The notes under the pieces: generated by a model
What the model was told of the DNA's origin: nothing
Databases searched by the model: none
What the model saw: only the letters and a program-made list of their open reading frames with translations
Program-made: the position numbers and the translations under genes
Shown: one piece after another, positions 3,565-16,254 of the stretch
How positions within the stretch are numbered: position 1 is the stretch's first letter
Layout of the letters: the number at the start of each line of letters is the position of its first letter
From: a virus
Length of the DNA stretch: 35,493 nt
Virus genome (UHGV): UHGV-0231292
Reading direction: 5' to 3' (one strand)

Positions 3565-3843
3565 ATGACTAAAGACCATGCACAAGGTGTATTTATCCGC
3601 TTTATTGATTTTCGCGGTGAACTGTTATTACGCGCATCAGCTATTGACGGAGTAGTTCCATCTGAAAAAAACGCAGCTACCTACGTTTATCTGAACGGTA
3701 CACGCCTGACTGTAGAGCTTCCGTACCAGATCATTCGCGAAATAATTAGCGAAGCCGAAAAATCTCGTCAGGTTAATGGCGATGAACCCTATATCGAGAT
3801 TATCTGCATGGATTCAGAAGCTGAAATTCAGAAAGCAGATTAA
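3565..3843 (+). CDS. Hypothetical early-operon protein
   Basis: 92 aa ORF, tight spacing. Confidence 0.4.
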   Translation: MTKDHAQGVFIRFIDFRGELLLRASAIDGVVPSEKNAATYVYLNGTRLTVELPYQIIREIISEAEKSRQVNGDEPYIEIICMDSEAEIQKAD

Positions 3844-3854
3844 AGGGTGTTGCG

Positions 3855-8123: not shown

Positions 8124-9083
8124 ATGAAAATTTGTATCGACGACGGCTCCACCAACATCAAGCTGGCATGGACTGAGAACGGCGAACGCCGCAACGCCAT
8201 CAGCCCGAACAGCTTCAAGTCGGAATGGTCTGCGCCGTTCGGTGGCACGCAGCCCGCGAACTACATGCTTGATGGCGTGCGCTATGGTTTTGATCCGGTC
8301 AGCGATCGCTTTGTCCAGACGACCGACACGCAATACCAGTACAGCGATGTGAATATAATTGCCATTCATCACGCGCTGGTCAAATCAGGCATCACACCAC
8401 AGGAAGTGGATGTGGTTGTCACCCTGCCACTGAGCGAGTATTTCGATACAAACGCACAGCCGGACATGGCCAACATCAACCGCAAAAAAGCGAACGTCAT
8501 GCGCCCGGTGGAGTACCAGAACGGCGAAGCATTCACTATCCGTAACGTACGGGTTATGCCTGAATCCATTCCGGCTGGCTTTAAGGCACTGGCTGACATG
8601 AGTCCGTTTGAATCCCTGCTGATTGTGGATTTGGGCGGAACCACTCTGGATGTGGCAAAGGTTCAGGGGCAACTGGCAGGTATCAGCCAGGTGTTTTGCG
8701 ATCCACACGTGGGCGTTTCTCTGATGGCCGATGCCGTACTGTCGGTGATGGCCACTAACGGTATGCGCACCAGTCACCACATCGCCAATACCATTATCGA
8801 ACATCGCCATGATGAAGCCTGGCTGCGCCAGCACATCCACAATGACGCGCATTACGCCAGCCTGATGGCGGTTATTCGTGAAAAGGAAGAAACACTGAAA
8901 CAACGCGTGATCCGCGCGCTGGCGGGTTTTTCGGGTTACGGGCGGGTGATGGTTGTCGGTGGAGGGGCGGAGATTGTGGCACCCGCTATCCGCGAAGCCT
9001 GCGGAGTTAATGCGACTTTCATCGCGGACGGGGTGCCACAGTTTGCTCTGGTTAATGGGCTGTACGCAATGGACAAGGAGTAA
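8124..9083 (+). CDS. parM: Actin-like segregation ATPase (ParM/StbA family)
   Basis: 319 aa; hallmark motifs IDDGSTNIKL, YSDVN, VMPESIPAG, DLGGTTLD, VVGGGAE, LVNGLY match ParM/StbA as recalled. Confidence 0.75.
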   Translation: MKICIDDGSTNIKLAWTENGERRNAISPNSFKSEWSAPFGGTQPANYMLDGVRYGFDPVSDRFVQTTDTQYQYSDVNIIAIHHALVKSGITPQEVDVVVTLPLSEYFDTNAQPDMANINRKKANVMRPVEYQNGEAFTIRNVRVMPESIPAGFKALADMSPFESLLIVDLGGTTLDVAKVQGQLAGISQVFCDPHVGVSLMADAVLSVMATNGMRTSHHIANTIIEHRHDEAWLRQHIHNDAHYASLMAVIREKEETLKQRVIRALAGFSGYGRVMVVGGGAEIVAPAIREACGVNATFIADGVPQFALVNGLYAMDKE

Positions 9084-9462: not shown

Positions 9463-10053
9463 ATGAGCGAAATCAACTATCAGGCATTACGTGAACGTTA
9501 TTCACCTGTGCCAGTACCGAAATGCCCTATTTGCGGCGAGGAAATGTCAATTCAGCGAATATCTGGAGCACAGGTTGTTTATGCCTGCTCCGGTTATGGT
9601 GATGATGGAGATTTCAAAATTGGCCGAACTCTTGCCGACGAACATTATGAAAAATCACGCGTAACAGTGTTGGATGTCGGGGATCCTGAAGTATTGGCGC
9701 TACTTGATTGGCTGGAAACCAAAGACAACCGAATCGCTGAACTGGAAAAAATCGCCACTGACTATGCACTTAAATTCCAGAAAGCACAGGACGCATTAAA
9801 GTATGCCGCTTTGCTGCATAGCAGGACGGCGCAACAAACAAATAATTTTGCAGTATCGCTTCCGGACATAAGCGAATATTTCATTAATGACGTATTTCAG
9901 CCCTTGCGATACGAGCGGGATGTTGAAAGAGCCATCATAAAGGCTGGCGGAAAAGCATTGTGGCAGGAGAAACACGAGGACAGAACGCATCAGTCCTGCG
10001 ATGTAAATCGTGGATGGTTTAGCCCACTGACGACAGATAAAAATAACACCTGA
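9463..10053 (+). CDS. Hypothetical protein with N-terminal Cys-rich (zinc-ribbon-like) segment and central helical region
   Basis: 196 aa; CPICGEE...YACSGYGDDGD then coiled-coil-like LALLDWLETKDNRIAELEKIATDYALKFQKAQDAL; strong RBS AAGGAGAA. Confidence 0.5.
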   Translation: MSEINYQALRERYSPVPVPKCPICGEEMSIQRISGAQVVYACSGYGDDGDFKIGRTLADEHYEKSRVTVLDVGDPEVLALLDWLETKDNRIAELEKIATDYALKFQKAQDALKYAALLHSRTAQQTNNFAVSLPDISEYFINDVFQPLRYERDVERAIIKAGGKALWQEKHEDRTHQSCDVNRGWFSPLTTDKNNT

Positions 10054-10092
10054 TCCCCCTCAAACCAGGGCGATAATCGCGCATCGCCCTGC

Positions 10093-10119
10093 TGCACAAT
10101 AGTGCACAAGTTTGCACAA
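10093..10119. repeat. Three direct TGCACAA repeats at exact 10-bp phasing (candidate protein-binding array near cos)
   Basis: cTGCACAAtagTGCACAAgttTGCACAAt read directly; a fourth TGCACAA lies at about 10185. Confidence 0.5.
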
Positions 10120-10162
10120 TTTTTTTGAACGACTTTTTACCCTTCCGGCCCGCATGGCGGCT

Positions 10163-10181
10163 GGATCCGTCAAGGATCCGT
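10163..10181. repeat. Tandem GGATCCGT direct repeat (11-bp period)
   Basis: GGATCCGTcaaGGATCCGT read directly. Confidence 0.4.
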
Positions 10182-10492
10182 GCGTGCACAAAAAAACGCG
10201 CTTTTTCTGCGCGCAGGTGACGGGGGAACAGCCCGCGTTTCAGGGGGTAAATAGCACTCCCTGAACGATGTCGCAGAGATACAACAGAATGGCTGTATTT
10301 CTCACGCTGAGCGTGAAAAAGACGTGAGGGCTTTTGATTTGATGGGGTGGCAGATAAGGCCGTCAAAATCGCACTGAGGCGGCGAAAACATGCAGTCAGC
10401 GCAGTGGGATTGCGTAAGAGTCTGACCGTCGATGATGGCAATAAGCAGGAAAGCGTCGTGAAATTATCTGATTGATACAGGAGCTGGAGAGT

Positions 10493-10517
10493 CGGGGCAT
10501 AAATTTTTTATGCCCCG
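10493..10517 (-). terminator. Stem-loop just downstream of Q on the minus strand (possible operon terminator)
   Basis: CGGGGCAT-loop(AAATTTTTT)-ATGCCCCG inverted repeat; no clear U-run, so weak. Confidence 0.3.
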
Positions 10518-10543
10518 GCGAAGCAGCAGACAAGCGAAGCGCG

Positions 10544-11590
10544 TCAGGATGTGGGCTGGGTGTCTAACAGTGCGTAAGGGTTAAAGCGGATCACCTCTTC
10601 GCCAAGCCAGTCATTGATGTGCTTCATGGCCTCCATGACAGGCATCAGCTCGTTAATTGCGTAAACCCGCGCGGCCTTCTCCACATCACCAAACGCACTT
10701 TTTTCGCCCGGCATCGCCCCCATCAGTTGCGGCGGAACGCGGTGCGCAGCCAGCACATCATCACGGGATGCCGCCTTAACATTCATGAACTCATCTTTTG
10801 CGGTGATCTGCTGGAACGGCAAAATTTGCACCCCCTCTTTGCCCCCGTTGGGCGCATGAATGAGCACGTTTTTAAATGCACCACCACCACGCGCACCCTG
10901 TAACGTTTCTTTCAGGGAGTCCATGCTTTCGCGGTTTACCTGCGCTGCACCGATGTAGATGATGCACCCGGCGTGGGATCCGTTGTCGTAGTACAGTTTT
11001 CTGAACATGTCCGCCGAATGAGAAAGGCTGGCCGAGAGTAATGCGCCAAGATATTCCGGCATGCCGTAGATTTCCTGGTTAATATCCGGATTCATCAGGT
11101 GGCACACTTTGCCAGGGCGAAACTGGAACGCGTCCTTGCCATCCTGCACATACCACCATGATTCAAGATCGCTTCCGCGTCGCATGTATTTCGCCAGGGC
11201 GTGCCGTAATTTAAGCGGTTCGCCGAGCATATTGCTACGAAGCTCAAGGAATGCGTTACCGAACACAAACCAGTCCAGCGCCAGCGCCGAGAAATCCTGC
11301 CGGGAAAACAGCGGGTGCGGGATGTAGCAACCGAGTAATACATTGCGCTTAAAGTAAAGCGCAGACTGATGCCAGGACGTTTGCCGGGCAGCTCTTGCCA
11401 GACCGTACCAGTCCACCGGGGTTTCATACCACCGCCCGTTATCAGCACAGTACATATTATCCAGCAGGTCATGCCCGGTCAGGCGATAAGGACCATCAAA
11501 TGTGAATGCACTGAGCGATGATTCTTTCCTGAGCGCATCAGCGAGATCAATGCGTGAACTCATGCGCACTTTTTTATTTTTTCTGCTCAT
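10544..11590 (-). CDS. Q: Portal protein (P2 gpQ-like)
   Basis: 348 aa; size, position and N-terminal pattern (basic N-terminus then FTFDGP...W) match P2 Q; cotranscribed with P. Confidence 0.9.
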   Translation of the reverse strand: MSRKNKKVRMSSRIDLADALRKESSLSAFTFDGPYRLTGHDLLDNMYCADNGRWYETPVDWYGLARAARQTSWHQSALYFKRNVLLGCYIPHPLFSRQDFSALALDWFVFGNAFLELRSNMLGEPLKLRHALAKYMRRGSDLESWWYVQDGKDAFQFRPGKVCHLMNPDINQEIYGMPEYLGALLSASLSHSADMFRKLYYDNGSHAGCIIYIGAAQVNRESMDSLKETLQGARGGGAFKNVLIHAPNGGKEGVQILPFQQITAKDEFMNVKAASRDDVLAAHRVPPQLMGAMPGEKSAFGDVEKAARVYAINELMPVMEAMKHINDWLGEEVIRFNPYALLDTQPTS

Positions 11591-13341
11591 CAGAACTCCA
11601 TAACCGTGAAACGCTCGTTTTCTCCTTCGCCGCCAATCGGTTCGTTAATGACAGCAAGCATGGTTGCCCACGCAAGGTCGCCGTGGCTGATCCCCCTCGC
11701 TCGGTCCGTTTCGTAAGTGATAAAGCCGCCCGGTGTTTTCACCTTACGCACGGCGTTAAAGGCCGCGACCAGCTCGCGTTCGGCGCGATCGTATTCCCAC
11801 CGCCCGGCACGCATTATTTGCAGCATTTTCAGTACCAGCGACCGTTTTGATGACAGCGTGAAGGTGTACGGAATAGCAGCAGGGAAAAACCGTTTCACTA
11901 TCTGATAAACAGCCTCCCCGTTCCCGCCCGTCACATCAATGCCGATGTGTTCCACGTTATAGCGACACGTGAACTCTTCAATGACTCTGGCCTGTTCTTC
12001 AAACTCCAGCCCCTGAACGCGTCGCGTCTCCACCGTTCGAAAACGGCCACCAGGAACAGCCGGAGGAACCACCACGGACACAGCACCGCTGTCGCCGTTG
12101 CCACTGCTGCCGTTTGCGTCATACCCAATCCATACCGGACGATTCCCCATCGGGCGGGGAGCAAAAGGTTTCCAGTCTTTCCAGTCGTCGTATCCGTCAA
12201 CACCGCAGCCAATCAGGATATTCAGGTTAAATGCCGATTCCCCTTCGCGGACAAACTCACACATATAGAGATTGAGGAACTCGTCTTCGGTGTTTTCATC
12301 ACGAATTTCGTCGATATCGGTGTGTTTCCAGCCGTGATTAACCACATCTTCCAGCGTGACAATTTGCCGCCAAGTCCGGTCAGGGCAGATAAGCCCGTTA
12401 TGCAGCGTTTTCCAGTCCACAGAAAAACGCTGGCGTTTATGCGAAGCCTTTTTCTCGTTCCAGCGGTCGCCGTTCCAGTAGGCGTACGCCTCGTGCGTTT
12501 CGGTGGATGGCGTGGAGAAGTAGGTGCGCCGCAGTCCGCTGAGGGTTGCCATAGCGCCAGCCACCTTGCGCAGTTCAGCAAAGCGACTGACCCAGAAAAA
12601 TTCATCAAAATAAAAATTGCCCGTATAGGACTGTGCCGACGCAGCAGAAGTGCCGAGAAAATGCAGCTCTGCGCCGTTGGAGAGGATGATTTTATCGCCC
12701 CCTTTCAGCTCCACATCAACTTCAGCCGCGACCTTCTGAATAATGCTTTTAAACTGGAACGCCTGACGACGCGACGCAGACAAAAAAATCTGGTTACGCT
12801 GGTAAGGTTGCGCCACATCGTCACGCAGCGCCATCAGCAGAGCTTCCTGTGCAAAATACCAGGTCGCCCCAATCTGTCGGGATTTCAGGATCATCCTGTT
12901 ACGTATCCCGGCTTCCCTGCAAAGTGTCAGGGAGTCAAACCAGCCCCGCTGATGCCACTCCAGCCTGCTGATGATTTTTTCCCGCAGTGCGGCAATCTGT
13001 TCCGGCGTGAAATGATTTTTAAGTTTTTTCGCCCGGCCTTTCTTTCCTGCGGCCATCACATCCGGCTGGCCATCATGCAGCTTTTTAAGCTGCCGGGTCA
13101 GCAGGTCTATTTCCTTAAAGTCACCGCCTGTTTTATTCTGTTTTTCAGTAAGCTGGATGAGGCGCGCATCGATGGACTGCGTGACACGCTGCACGGGGGG
13201 CGTTTCATCCCACTGGTCGCGTTTTTTCCACGCATAAATCGTGTTCGGGTTTATTCCCATCAGACGTGATATTTCTGCGGGCGGATAACCCTGCCAGTAA
13301 AGTTGCCGCGCACGCTGGCGCACAAAAGCGTCCTGAATCAT
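11590..13341 (-). CDS. P: Terminase large subunit / ATPase (P2 gpP-like)
   Basis: 583 aa; N-terminus MIQDAFVRQRARQLYWQGYPPAEISRLMGINPNTIYAWKKRDQWDE characteristic of P2 P. Confidence 0.9.
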   Translation of the reverse strand: MIQDAFVRQRARQLYWQGYPPAEISRLMGINPNTIYAWKKRDQWDETPPVQRVTQSIDARLIQLTEKQNKTGGDFKEIDLLTRQLKKLHDGQPDVMAAGKKGRAKKLKNHFTPEQIAALREKIISRLEWHQRGWFDSLTLCREAGIRNRMILKSRQIGATWYFAQEALLMALRDDVAQPYQRNQIFLSASRRQAFQFKSIIQKVAAEVDVELKGGDKIILSNGAELHFLGTSAASAQSYTGNFYFDEFFWVSRFAELRKVAGAMATLSGLRRTYFSTPSTETHEAYAYWNGDRWNEKKASHKRQRFSVDWKTLHNGLICPDRTWRQIVTLEDVVNHGWKHTDIDEIRDENTEDEFLNLYMCEFVREGESAFNLNILIGCGVDGYDDWKDWKPFAPRPMGNRPVWIGYDANGSSGNGDSGAVSVVVPPAVPGGRFRTVETRRVQGLEFEEQARVIEEFTCRYNVEHIGIDVTGGNGEAVYQIVKRFFPAAIPYTFTLSSKRSLVLKMLQIMRAGRWEYDRAERELVAAFNAVRKVKTPGGFITYETDRARGISHGDLAWATMLAVINEPIGGEGENERFTVMEF

Positions 13342-15453: not shown

Positions 15454-16254
15454 ATGATTACTCCTGCACAACAACACTGGCAGAACGTGATGGCACAGCG
15501 CGCAGGCCGGGCGAATGAAGGCGTGGACCACGCCGCGCGTACCGCGCATGAAGAGGTGCTGTATCGTCTGCGTCTGGCACAGGCCCGGCTTAAGGGCGTA
15601 CAGGCCAGAAGCGCGAAAGCCGCCATCAAAAAAGAGTTGTTGCCGGATTTTTCCGGCTGGATTGAGGGAACGCTGGAGGCTGACGGCGGGCAGCAGGATG
15701 AAGTGATTGCCACGCTGATGGTGTGGGCGATTGACTGCGGCGATCTTCCGCTTGCGTTGCGTATTGGTGCGTATGTGGTCCGTCATAACCTCATCATGCC
15801 GGATAACTTTGGCCGTACTGCTGCCACGGTACTGACCGAAGAAATCTGCAACCCGGTACTGACGCAGGCCGGGACGGATGCTGACGCGGATTTGTCCGCC
15901 TTTATCGAACCACTGGACACCCTCCGGGAGATTGTCACAGACCAGGACATGCCGGACGAAGTGCGCGCCAAATTATGCAAGGCGTGCGCCTTTGCCCGTC
16001 GTGGTCTGACCGATGCAGACAACATGGCCTTATCACTGAAGCTGCTGCGCGAAGCGATGCACCTGAACCCGAACGCAGGTGTGAAACGCGAGATTGCAAC
16101 CCTTTCCCGCGCCCTGAAAAAAGCCGATTCCGCAGCCGAACCAGAAGACGCCAGCGCACAGCAGGCGCAGGACGAAAACAGCAAAAGTAAAAAGACAACG
16201 CGGAAGCCTGCAACACGAAAAACCACCGCGACGCAGAAGGCGAAGCGCGGTTAA
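15454..16254 (+). CDS. M: Terminase small subunit / endonuclease (P2 gpM-like)
   Basis: 266 aa; MPDEVRAKL and basic C-terminal tail typical of gpM. Confidence 0.85.
   Translation: MITPAQQHWQNVMAQRAGRANEGVDHAARTAHEEVLYRLRLAQARLKGVQARSAKAAIKKELLPDFSGWIEGTLEADGGQQDEVIATLMVWAIDCGDLPLALRIGAYVVRHNLIMPDNFGRTAATVLTEEICNPVLTQAGTDADADLSAFIEPLDTLREIVTDQDMPDEVRAKLCKACAFARRGLTDADNMALSLKLLREAMHLNPNAGVKREIATLSRALKKADSAAEPEDASAQQAQDENSKSKKTTRKPATRKTTATQKAKRG

Follow-up and report, generated by a model that had tools for sequence, protein, structure and literature searches.

A putative cos site of the P2 family in a P88-like prophage, with phased repeats in two parts upstream of the predicted cut

Where is the DNA of a P88-like prophage cut for packaging, and what do the short phased repeats near the likely place of the cut do? 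The DNA analysed here is a stretch of 35,493 nucleotides from the virus genome UHGV-0231292 (the window), and the question centres on a 490-bp gap between a gene for a 196-aa Ead/Ea22-like cargo protein (9463–10053) and the portal gene Q (10544–11590, minus strand; Pfam PF04860), both of which lie where a sequence-only reading of the window had described them. That reading had placed cos in the gap, and four results bear it out: diverged relatives keep the repeats of the gap, the conserved backbone begins with them on its left side, the block that they open is shared with satellite-like elements, and its parts match P2, 186 and P4 in position. The best explanation, to which we give a probability of roughly 0.7, is that positions 10092 to about 10250 are the cos site of a P88-like prophage, with a two-part repeat signal that would be recognised by the terminase protein gpP together with gpM.

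P2-family cos sites are described as having 19-nt 5' cohesive ends and a "55-bp conserved cos core" in the parts of the literature that we could consult (PMC9594776, PMC3931495, PMC5694545). These and the other accessible papers, Ziermann and Calendar 1990 excepted, cite just the 19-nt ends and the 55-bp core, and make no mention of a cos site in P88. The P88-type form set out below is an ordinary but clearly delimited feature, which carries the P2/P4 model of cos over to a diverged lineage and does not overturn the current understanding. The 55-bp conserved core is reportedly to be credited to Ziermann and Calendar in 1990.

The element and its phased repeats

Judged by its closest matches, the window is a P88-like prophage (Xuanwuvirus, P2 family). 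The nearest phage records are those of P88 and other Xuanwuvirus genomes, and the 1.2 kb from 9700 to 10900 matches the E. coli SCU-124 chromosome at 100% identity. Its head proteins are 33–47% identical to their P2 and 186 counterparts, thus indicating that the P88-like lineage is a deep branch of the P2 family. Both terminase genes are encoded alongside the gap, as in P2 and 186. Gene P (11590–13341, minus strand) encodes the large terminase gpP with matches to PF03237, PF17289 and PF06056 (Terminase_5/HTH), the last of these being an N-terminal helix-turn-helix domain, and gene M (15454–16254, plus strand; PF05944, E = 5.6e-37) encodes a small terminase that is 40% identical to P2 gpM. A ParM/StbA-like actin-type segregation ATPase is encoded to the left of the cargo gene (8124–9083, plus strand; PF06406 and PF21523), and in the records of P88 and Chuche the homologous gene is followed by one annotated as encoding a small partition protein; a plasmid-style partition module is thus found inside a P2-family prophage, and it is present in about half of the relatives.

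Three copies of TGCACAA lie in the gap at 10093–10099, 10103–10109 and 10113–10119, at exactly 10-bp spacing, and a fourth lies at 10185–10191, as had been noted by eye. The phased triple exceeds chance. Nowhere else in the 35.5-kb window does a 5-, 6- or 7-mer recur three times at 10-bp phase, and no 7-mer triple arose in any of 200 Markov-1 simulated sequences. It is the arrangement that is unusual and not the total count of TGCACAA in the window, which is ordinary (10 found, 9 expected). The TGCA cores of the repeats are palindromic. A tandem GGATCCGT repeat, which had been noticed at the same time, is also present (10163–10170 and 10174–10181, 11 bp apart), but the window holds 14 other 8-mer pairs spaced 8–20 bp, so this pair alone is not beyond chance.

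The conservation of these and the neighbouring elements was measured in a sample that is unbiased with respect to cos, being made of loci anchored on the portal protein Q and taken from genome contigs, with one genome per species. Nearly all of the Enterobacterales loci in this sample, with Q identities of about 54–99%, have three phased GCACAA motifs, the fourth repeat and a G-rich core. The conservation values given below are mean identities to the window in 34 diverged sequences of the sample. In distant marine relatives (Q identity 31–42%; Shewanella, Colwellia, Pseudoalteromonas and Porphyrobacter loci), a crude de novo scan with exact 5-mers found no phased triple downstream of Q.

Anatomy of the site and the predicted cohesive end

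Read from left to right, the gap begins with a hairpin just past the stop codon of the cargo gene (CAGGGCGAT...ATCGCCCTG; 10066–10091, plus strand). Variability reaches 0.50 at 10081–10090 in 122 close relatives and the identity of this zone in diverged relatives is 0.27, the value found upstream of the repeats as a whole; by this measure the hairpin is part of the variable cargo module and not of cos. The distal recognition element follows, with three TGCACAA copies at 10093–10119 (plus strand) that place GCAC at −122, −112 and −102 from the predicted cut. Absence of the repeats from close relatives, combined with a lack of binding by packaging proteins, had been named among the results that would count against a role in packaging; they are conserved at 0.89–0.98 in the 34 diverged sequences, with 0.89, 0.93 and 0.97 for repeats 1, 2 and 3, and 0.58–0.60 for the spacers between these distal copies. 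The third repeat runs into seven T residues and GA (10120–10128, plus strand; conservation 0.80, and variability of only 0.002 in close relatives), which is probably an intrinsic bend and may serve to bend the DNA at this point.

The next segment (10129–10184, plus strand) is a spacer that is conserved in length and variable in sequence. It holds the GGATCCGT pair and two GATC sites, its identity in diverged relatives is 0.39–0.51 (middle region 0.42; the two GGATCCGT copies 0.39 and 0.51), other lineages have GCGCGGTCTGAccccGGATCGG or CGCCAG..CTGGCG palindromes instead, and its sequence is missing from the satellite-like elements described below. Within the P88 group of E. coli, Salmonella and Citrobacter the GGATCCGT pair is well kept (variability 0.011–0.018). 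Outside that group it is replaced, often by the CGCCAG..CTGGCG palindrome that is central in many relatives or by GCGCGGTCTG...GGATCGG, and the satellite-like elements are without it. On this comparison the pair is a feature of one lineage that is dispensable in relatives and satellites, and it probably belongs to the spacer, where any role that it has would be lineage-specific. Many lineages have GATC (Dam) sites in the cos spacer, as the window does at 10164–10167 and 10175–10178; the context is GGATCC in the window, GCGCGGATCCAG in 186-like phages and GGATCGG in phages of the Enterobacter type, and P4 has none.

To the right of the spacer lies the proximal recognition element, in which the fourth TGCACAA is followed by an A run (TGCACAAAAAAAC; 10185–10197, plus strand), with GCAC at −30. 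The element and the repeat in it are conserved at 0.98, and the counterpart in P2, 186 and P4 is CTGCATTAAAACCG at −28. A GC hairpin, ACGCGC-TTTTTCT-GCGCGC (about 10196–10215, plus strand), then ends in GCGCGCA directly before the predicted nick; GCGCGCA is conserved at 0.82 and the hairpin loop at 0.42 in the 34 diverged sequences, and P2 and 186 have a GC hairpin at the equivalent place. The predicted cohesive end, a cosN-like G-rich 19-mer placed by homology (GGTGACGGGGGAACAGCCC; 10216–10234, plus strand), is conserved at 0.86. It is followed by a post-core segment (GCGTTTCAGGGGGTAA; 10235–10250, plus strand) with conserved CGC and GGGG, which forms the right edge of the conserved cos block: conservation is 0.58 here versus 0.26 further right, and blastn blocks stop at 10237–10252. 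From 10251 to 10492 there is lineage-specific non-coding filler, common to neither the diverged lineages nor the satellite-like elements. The gap closes with a perfect hairpin with an 11-bp stem and T runs on both sides (10493–10517, minus strand), the terminator of the P-Q operon and counterpart of P2 tQ; the P2 and 186 records have tQ and tW annotated at the equivalent place. An Rfam search gave no family at gathering score, with a sub-threshold gyrA match on the Q terminator alone, and a sigma-70 promoter scan of 9900–10700 found none.

Two 19-mers had been offered as weak candidates for the cohesive end. The first, GGTGACGGGGGAACAGCCC, is the right one by context, although it occupies 10216–10234 and not 10218–10236 as had been given, and on that context it is very probably the cohesive end. 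The caution with which it was put forward was fair. It is identical to the P2 end GGCGAGGCGGGGAAAGCAC at 13 of 19 positions, keeping GGnGA...GGGG..A.AGC.C, but the window has 10 sites that score 13/19 or better, so this match is not significant by itself and it is the context, and not the 19-mer, that carries the assignment. Raw similarity to the 19-mers of P2, 186 and SEN4 likewise does not discriminate between sites in the window. Only 10216–10234 comes after a TGCA motif with an A run, a hairpin and GCGCGCA, lies inside the block shared with satellite-like elements and is invariant independently of its flanks, GGTGACGGGGGAACAGCCC being unchanged in relatives whose flanking sequences differ. 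Position 10216 is homologous in position to the starts of the P2, 186 and SEN4 records, and the flanks of the core are conserved, with TGCACAAAAAAAC-hairpin-GCGCGCA|GG in the window against TGCATTAAAACCG-hairpin-GCGGGCG|GG in the P2 type. The core also has the P2-like position and orientation, between the variable cargo on its left and the Q stop at 10544. Homology predicts the left nick at 10215|10216; the right nick is uncertain by 1–2 nt, because a second class of core aligns with one extra column. A search for phage records, IMG/VR contigs or metagenome contigs that begin or end at the core found none.

The second candidate, GGCGGCGAAAACATGCAGT, lies at 10378–10396, and we consider it very improbable that it, or the register 10373–10391, is the cohesive end and that the repeats are unrelated to the cut. 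Such a placement would put cos about 170 bp from the Q stop, as in P2, and ACTGAGGCGGCGAAAACAT at 10373 (10373–10391), which overlaps the candidate, also matches the P2 end at 13/19. However, the segment belongs to the lineage-specific filler, outside the block shared with satellites, and is missing both from diverged lineages and from satellite-like elements, which keep only 10092–10237/10252. Its variability in close relatives is ordinary (0.028–0.037), and neither a TGCA-plus-A-run element nor GCGCGCA lies ahead of it.

Two deposited genomes stand out at the predicted 19-mer. Chuche (PP925824) is without 7 nt (GGGAACA) and P88_4B11 (LR595891) without 5 nt (CCCGC), both being private deletions exactly in or at the 19-mer, aligned to 10216–10239, in records that appear to be derived from particles. 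Neither deletion variant was found in IMG/VR, where the intact core occurs more than 120 times. The deletions may be assembly artefacts at physical DNA ends.

Shared geometry and a block common to satellite-like elements

Alignment to the cos regions of P2 and 186, which had been suggested as a check, gave the same order of elements upstream of the cut. The records of P2 and 186 open with the annotated cohesive ends, and we compared their right ends, together with the right end of the satellite P4, with the window. In all three, three phased TGCAT repeats (gTTGCATTcaagGGTGCATGagaTTGCATT in P2) are followed by a spacer, by TGCATTAAAACC, by a GC hairpin and by the cut, the fourth P2-type repeat with its A-rich tail being TGCATTAAAACCG. 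GCAT occurs in P2 at −122, −110, −100 and −28, and GCAC occurs in the window at −122, −112, −102 and −30 from 10216. As in P2 and 186, the site lies between a hotspot of accessory genes and the portal gene, and as in P2, 186 and P4 a G-rich 19-mer beginning with GGnGA comes after the GC hairpin in a block that is copied by satellites. The window differs in the repeat unit, which is TGCACAA and not TGCAT(G/T), and in the distance from cos to the Q stop, which is 309 bp compared with about 170–190 bp in P2 and 186; its ends are predicted, whereas those of P2, 186 and P4 are annotated or stand at the start of the record. At the right end of P2 (L004, 1425–1485), about 27 bp separate the first distal TGCAT from the annotated mRNA start sites of old-tin on the minus strand, so the old promoter must abut or overlap the distal cos repeats.

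A closer parallel is provided by the Salmonella phage SEN4 (Senquatrovirus), whose sticky end was reported by its authors as GGCGAGGCGGGGGAACGAG (PMC5261728). Its record starts at the position homologous to 10216, its upstream repeats read TGCACAA, CGCATAA, TGCATTG and TGCACAA with TTTGCACAAAAAAG at the proximal site, and its gpM is 49% identical to that of the window. SEN4 differs in having a core with a P2-like left half, and belongs to the GCACAA-repeat group with the second class of core. Kosakonia, Brenneria, Pectobacterium, Klebsiella and Morganella have this second class, GGCGAGGCGGGGGAGCAAG, with the GCACAA repeats retained, which indicates that repeats and core vary independently.

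Scans of IMG/VR yielded 35 non-redundant contexts of the P88 type and 80 of the P2/186/P4 type. GCAC peaks at −122, −112, −102 and −30 in the former, and GCAT peaks at −110, −100 and −28 in the latter. The distance from repeat 2 to repeat 3 is 10 bp in 35/35 P88-type and 63/78 P2-type sequences; between repeats 3 and 4 it is 72 bp in 32/35 and 53/78, respectively, and 72 of the 78 P2-type sequences have 71–73 bp there. The 72-bp distance is kept while the sequence between varies, thus indicating that the geometry itself is under selection. With distal repeats at −122, −112 and −102 and a proximal one at −30, the window has the layout of the family, in which three phased distal repeats lie about 100–122 bp upstream of the cut; this layout was derived in the present analysis from P2, 186, P4 and the 80 relatives.

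The limits of the site can be read from what different genomes share with the window. A search of E. coli with a 1.2-kb query covering cos and the 3' end of Q gave matches in 1744 of 5426 complete genomes, some of them through Q alone. In most of the E. coli matches listed, homology begins at 10092/10093, that is, at the first repeat, and to its left these relatives carry variable cargo, in the hotspot that was described by Rousset et al. (PMC9122126). Diverged lineages have only 10092–10237/10247 and the Q gene in common with the window. Five metagenome contigs of two types (L332, L359 and L367; L340 and L398) carry the P88-type cos block, with the core at 3836–3854 on the minus strand in L332 and at 702–720 in L340, and share with the window essentially only 10092–10252 (81% identity) or 10092–10237 (75%), the remaining similarity being weak and confined to capsid and integrase genes. 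They encode integrases, an 897-aa primase (phrog_1139), a repressor-like gene and a homologue of the P2-family major capsid protein with an N-terminal extension of 130–170 aa; no portal or terminase gene was found near their cos block, and one of them adjoins rpoD. The gene content of these elements suggests satellites of P88-like phages with a capsid gene of their own. P2 and P4 have cos as their only shared region, and the relation of the window to these elements mirrors that, with a cos block common to phage and putative satellites as in the P2 family. The shared block independently points to a functional unit of about 10092–10250.

Candidate readers of the repeats and a possible role in packaging specificity

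A mechanism can be proposed in which the terminase (gpP and gpM) recognises a signal made of two parts, on that side of the cut which will form the right end of the virion DNA. The distal part would consist of the three same-face TGCACAA copies and the T7 run (10093–10128) and the proximal part of the fourth copy and its A run (10185–10197), separated by a spacer of fixed length and free sequence, and about 70 bp of DNA would probably be wrapped or looped. With both parts held, the nuclease would be placed on GCGCGCA|GGTGACGGGGGAACAGCCC and would nick the two strands at staggered positions, the top one at 10215|10216 and the bottom one about 19 nt further right. The same-face triple, the T and A runs and the fixed 72 bp to a fourth site next to the cut would fit an oligomeric terminase that holds both parts. 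Which DNA a given terminase packages would depend on the sequence of the repeat (TGCACAA here, TGCAT in P2, 186 and P4), and satellites would copy the whole block so as to be packaged. Candidate readers of the repeats are gpM and, likewise, the N-terminal helix-turn-helix of gpP, between which the data cannot separate; no solved structures for gpM or gpP were found. The divergence of gpM from its P2 counterpart is no greater than that of the other head proteins (33–47% identity for all), and there is thus no specific signal of co-variation of gpM or gpP with the repeat type.

Lambda cos consists of cosQ, cosN and cosB, with R sites for gpNu1 and the IHF site I1, and IHF acts between the gpNu1 sites in cosB. 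The site in the window resembles it in that several copies of a short recognition motif, spaced apart by DNA prone to bending, flank the place of nicking, which suggests a cosB-like way of working. There is no sequence relationship, and the site is not a member of the lambda family; a cosB of the lambda type was rejected, since the cut separates the repeats from the gpP and gpM genes, whereas those of lambda cosB are on the terminase-gene side, and since no IHF consensus was seen on reading 10093–10215. P2-type phages package monomeric circles (PMC2231350), so one compact site must serve both initiation and termination, which is a further difference from lambda.

The regular phasing had been taken to suggest cooperative binding by the small terminase subunit, by a cosB-like system or by IHF. 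The repeats do behave as a selected, geometry-constrained part of cos, but IHF is disfavoured as their reader relative to the terminase. It is unlikely, though the least improbable of the alternatives, that cos and its core are as placed above while a DNA-bending protein of the host (IHF, Fis or similar) reads the repeats, or these act through intrinsic curvature of the T7 and A7 runs alone. Conserved T and A runs do adjoin repeats 3 and 4, and IHF between the gpNu1 sites of lambda cosB is a textbook precedent; yet no good match to the IHF consensus WATCAANNNNTTR is seen by eye in 10093–10215, and a host protein shared by all these phages predicts neither that phages of the same host differ in their repeats (TGCAT in P2 and 186, TGCACAA in P88-like phages) nor that satellites match the repeat type of their helper. 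It is these differences between lineages of the same host, and the match between helper and satellite, that favour a phage-encoded reader, the terminase, over IHF.

Somewhat less probable still is a main role of the repeats in insulating transcription, with repeats 2 and 3 and the T7 run forming a rightward terminator and the hairpin at 10196–10214 with its minus-strand T run a leftward one, which together would stop transcripts from entering the site of the cut. A consensus scan does give terminator-like hits at 10102–10117 on the plus strand with AATTTTTTTG and at 10214–10196 on the minus strand with TTTTTTTGTGC, and the palindromic TGCA cores count in the same direction. Against this, P2-type repeats have no T run after them, the hairpin is lost in many relatives (loop or stem conservation 0.42), the cargo gene already has a hairpin of its own (10066–10091), and neither the first repeat nor the exact distance of 72 bp would be accounted for. 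In ParMRC systems, parC is built from an array of direct repeats of roughly 11 bp, and the ParM-like gene (PF06406/PF21523; 8124–9083) lies about 1 kb upstream of the repeats in the window, which could make these a parC-like centromere. This is the least credible of the readings, and was rejected on linkage: a ParM homologue lies within 4 kb of only 47 of 106 phased-triple loci and of 2 of 21 in the diverse Q-anchored sample. In addition, the cargo gene and its hairpin intervene between ParM and the repeats, and the P2, 186 and P4 regions examined have no partition gene annotated beside the equivalent repeats.

Recognition by the terminase remains the preferred reading, and its extension to other phages can be put forward tentatively: the "3 + 1" phased TGCA-type repeats, with their fixed 72 bp and their position outside the 55-bp core, might be a docking code for P2-like terminases throughout the family, although we hold this to be somewhat less likely than its opposite. 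If it is true, the repeat type (TGCAT or TGCACAA) and, independently, the core would define groups of packaging specificity, which would decide which satellites pirate which helpers and would include apparently undescribed P88-dependent satellites with a gpN-like capsid gene of their own. This gives a simple and testable hypothesis for packaging specificity between helpers and satellites in the P2 family. The compact block of about 160 bp (10092–10250) suggests itself for P88-type cosmids or transducing particles.

The site also provides a usable cos boundary for a very common type of E. coli prophage, with the first repeat marking the end of the variable defence and cargo hotspot. Several deposited records annotate spurious small ORFs here: ORFs corresponding to 10347–10475 and to about 10140–10283, both on the plus strand and situated within or across the cos region, are annotated as hypothetical in P88, P88_4B11 and Chuche. 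The variable sites of the 42-aa ORF at 10347–10475 fall on the three codon positions 18, 16 and 17 times, and this lack of bias indicates that the small ORFs of the cos region are probably not genes. In EC958 and many other E. coli relatives about 614 bp, including a hypothetical gene, are inserted at the 3' end of Q (10547–10569), between the Q stop and the remaining spacer between cos and Q.
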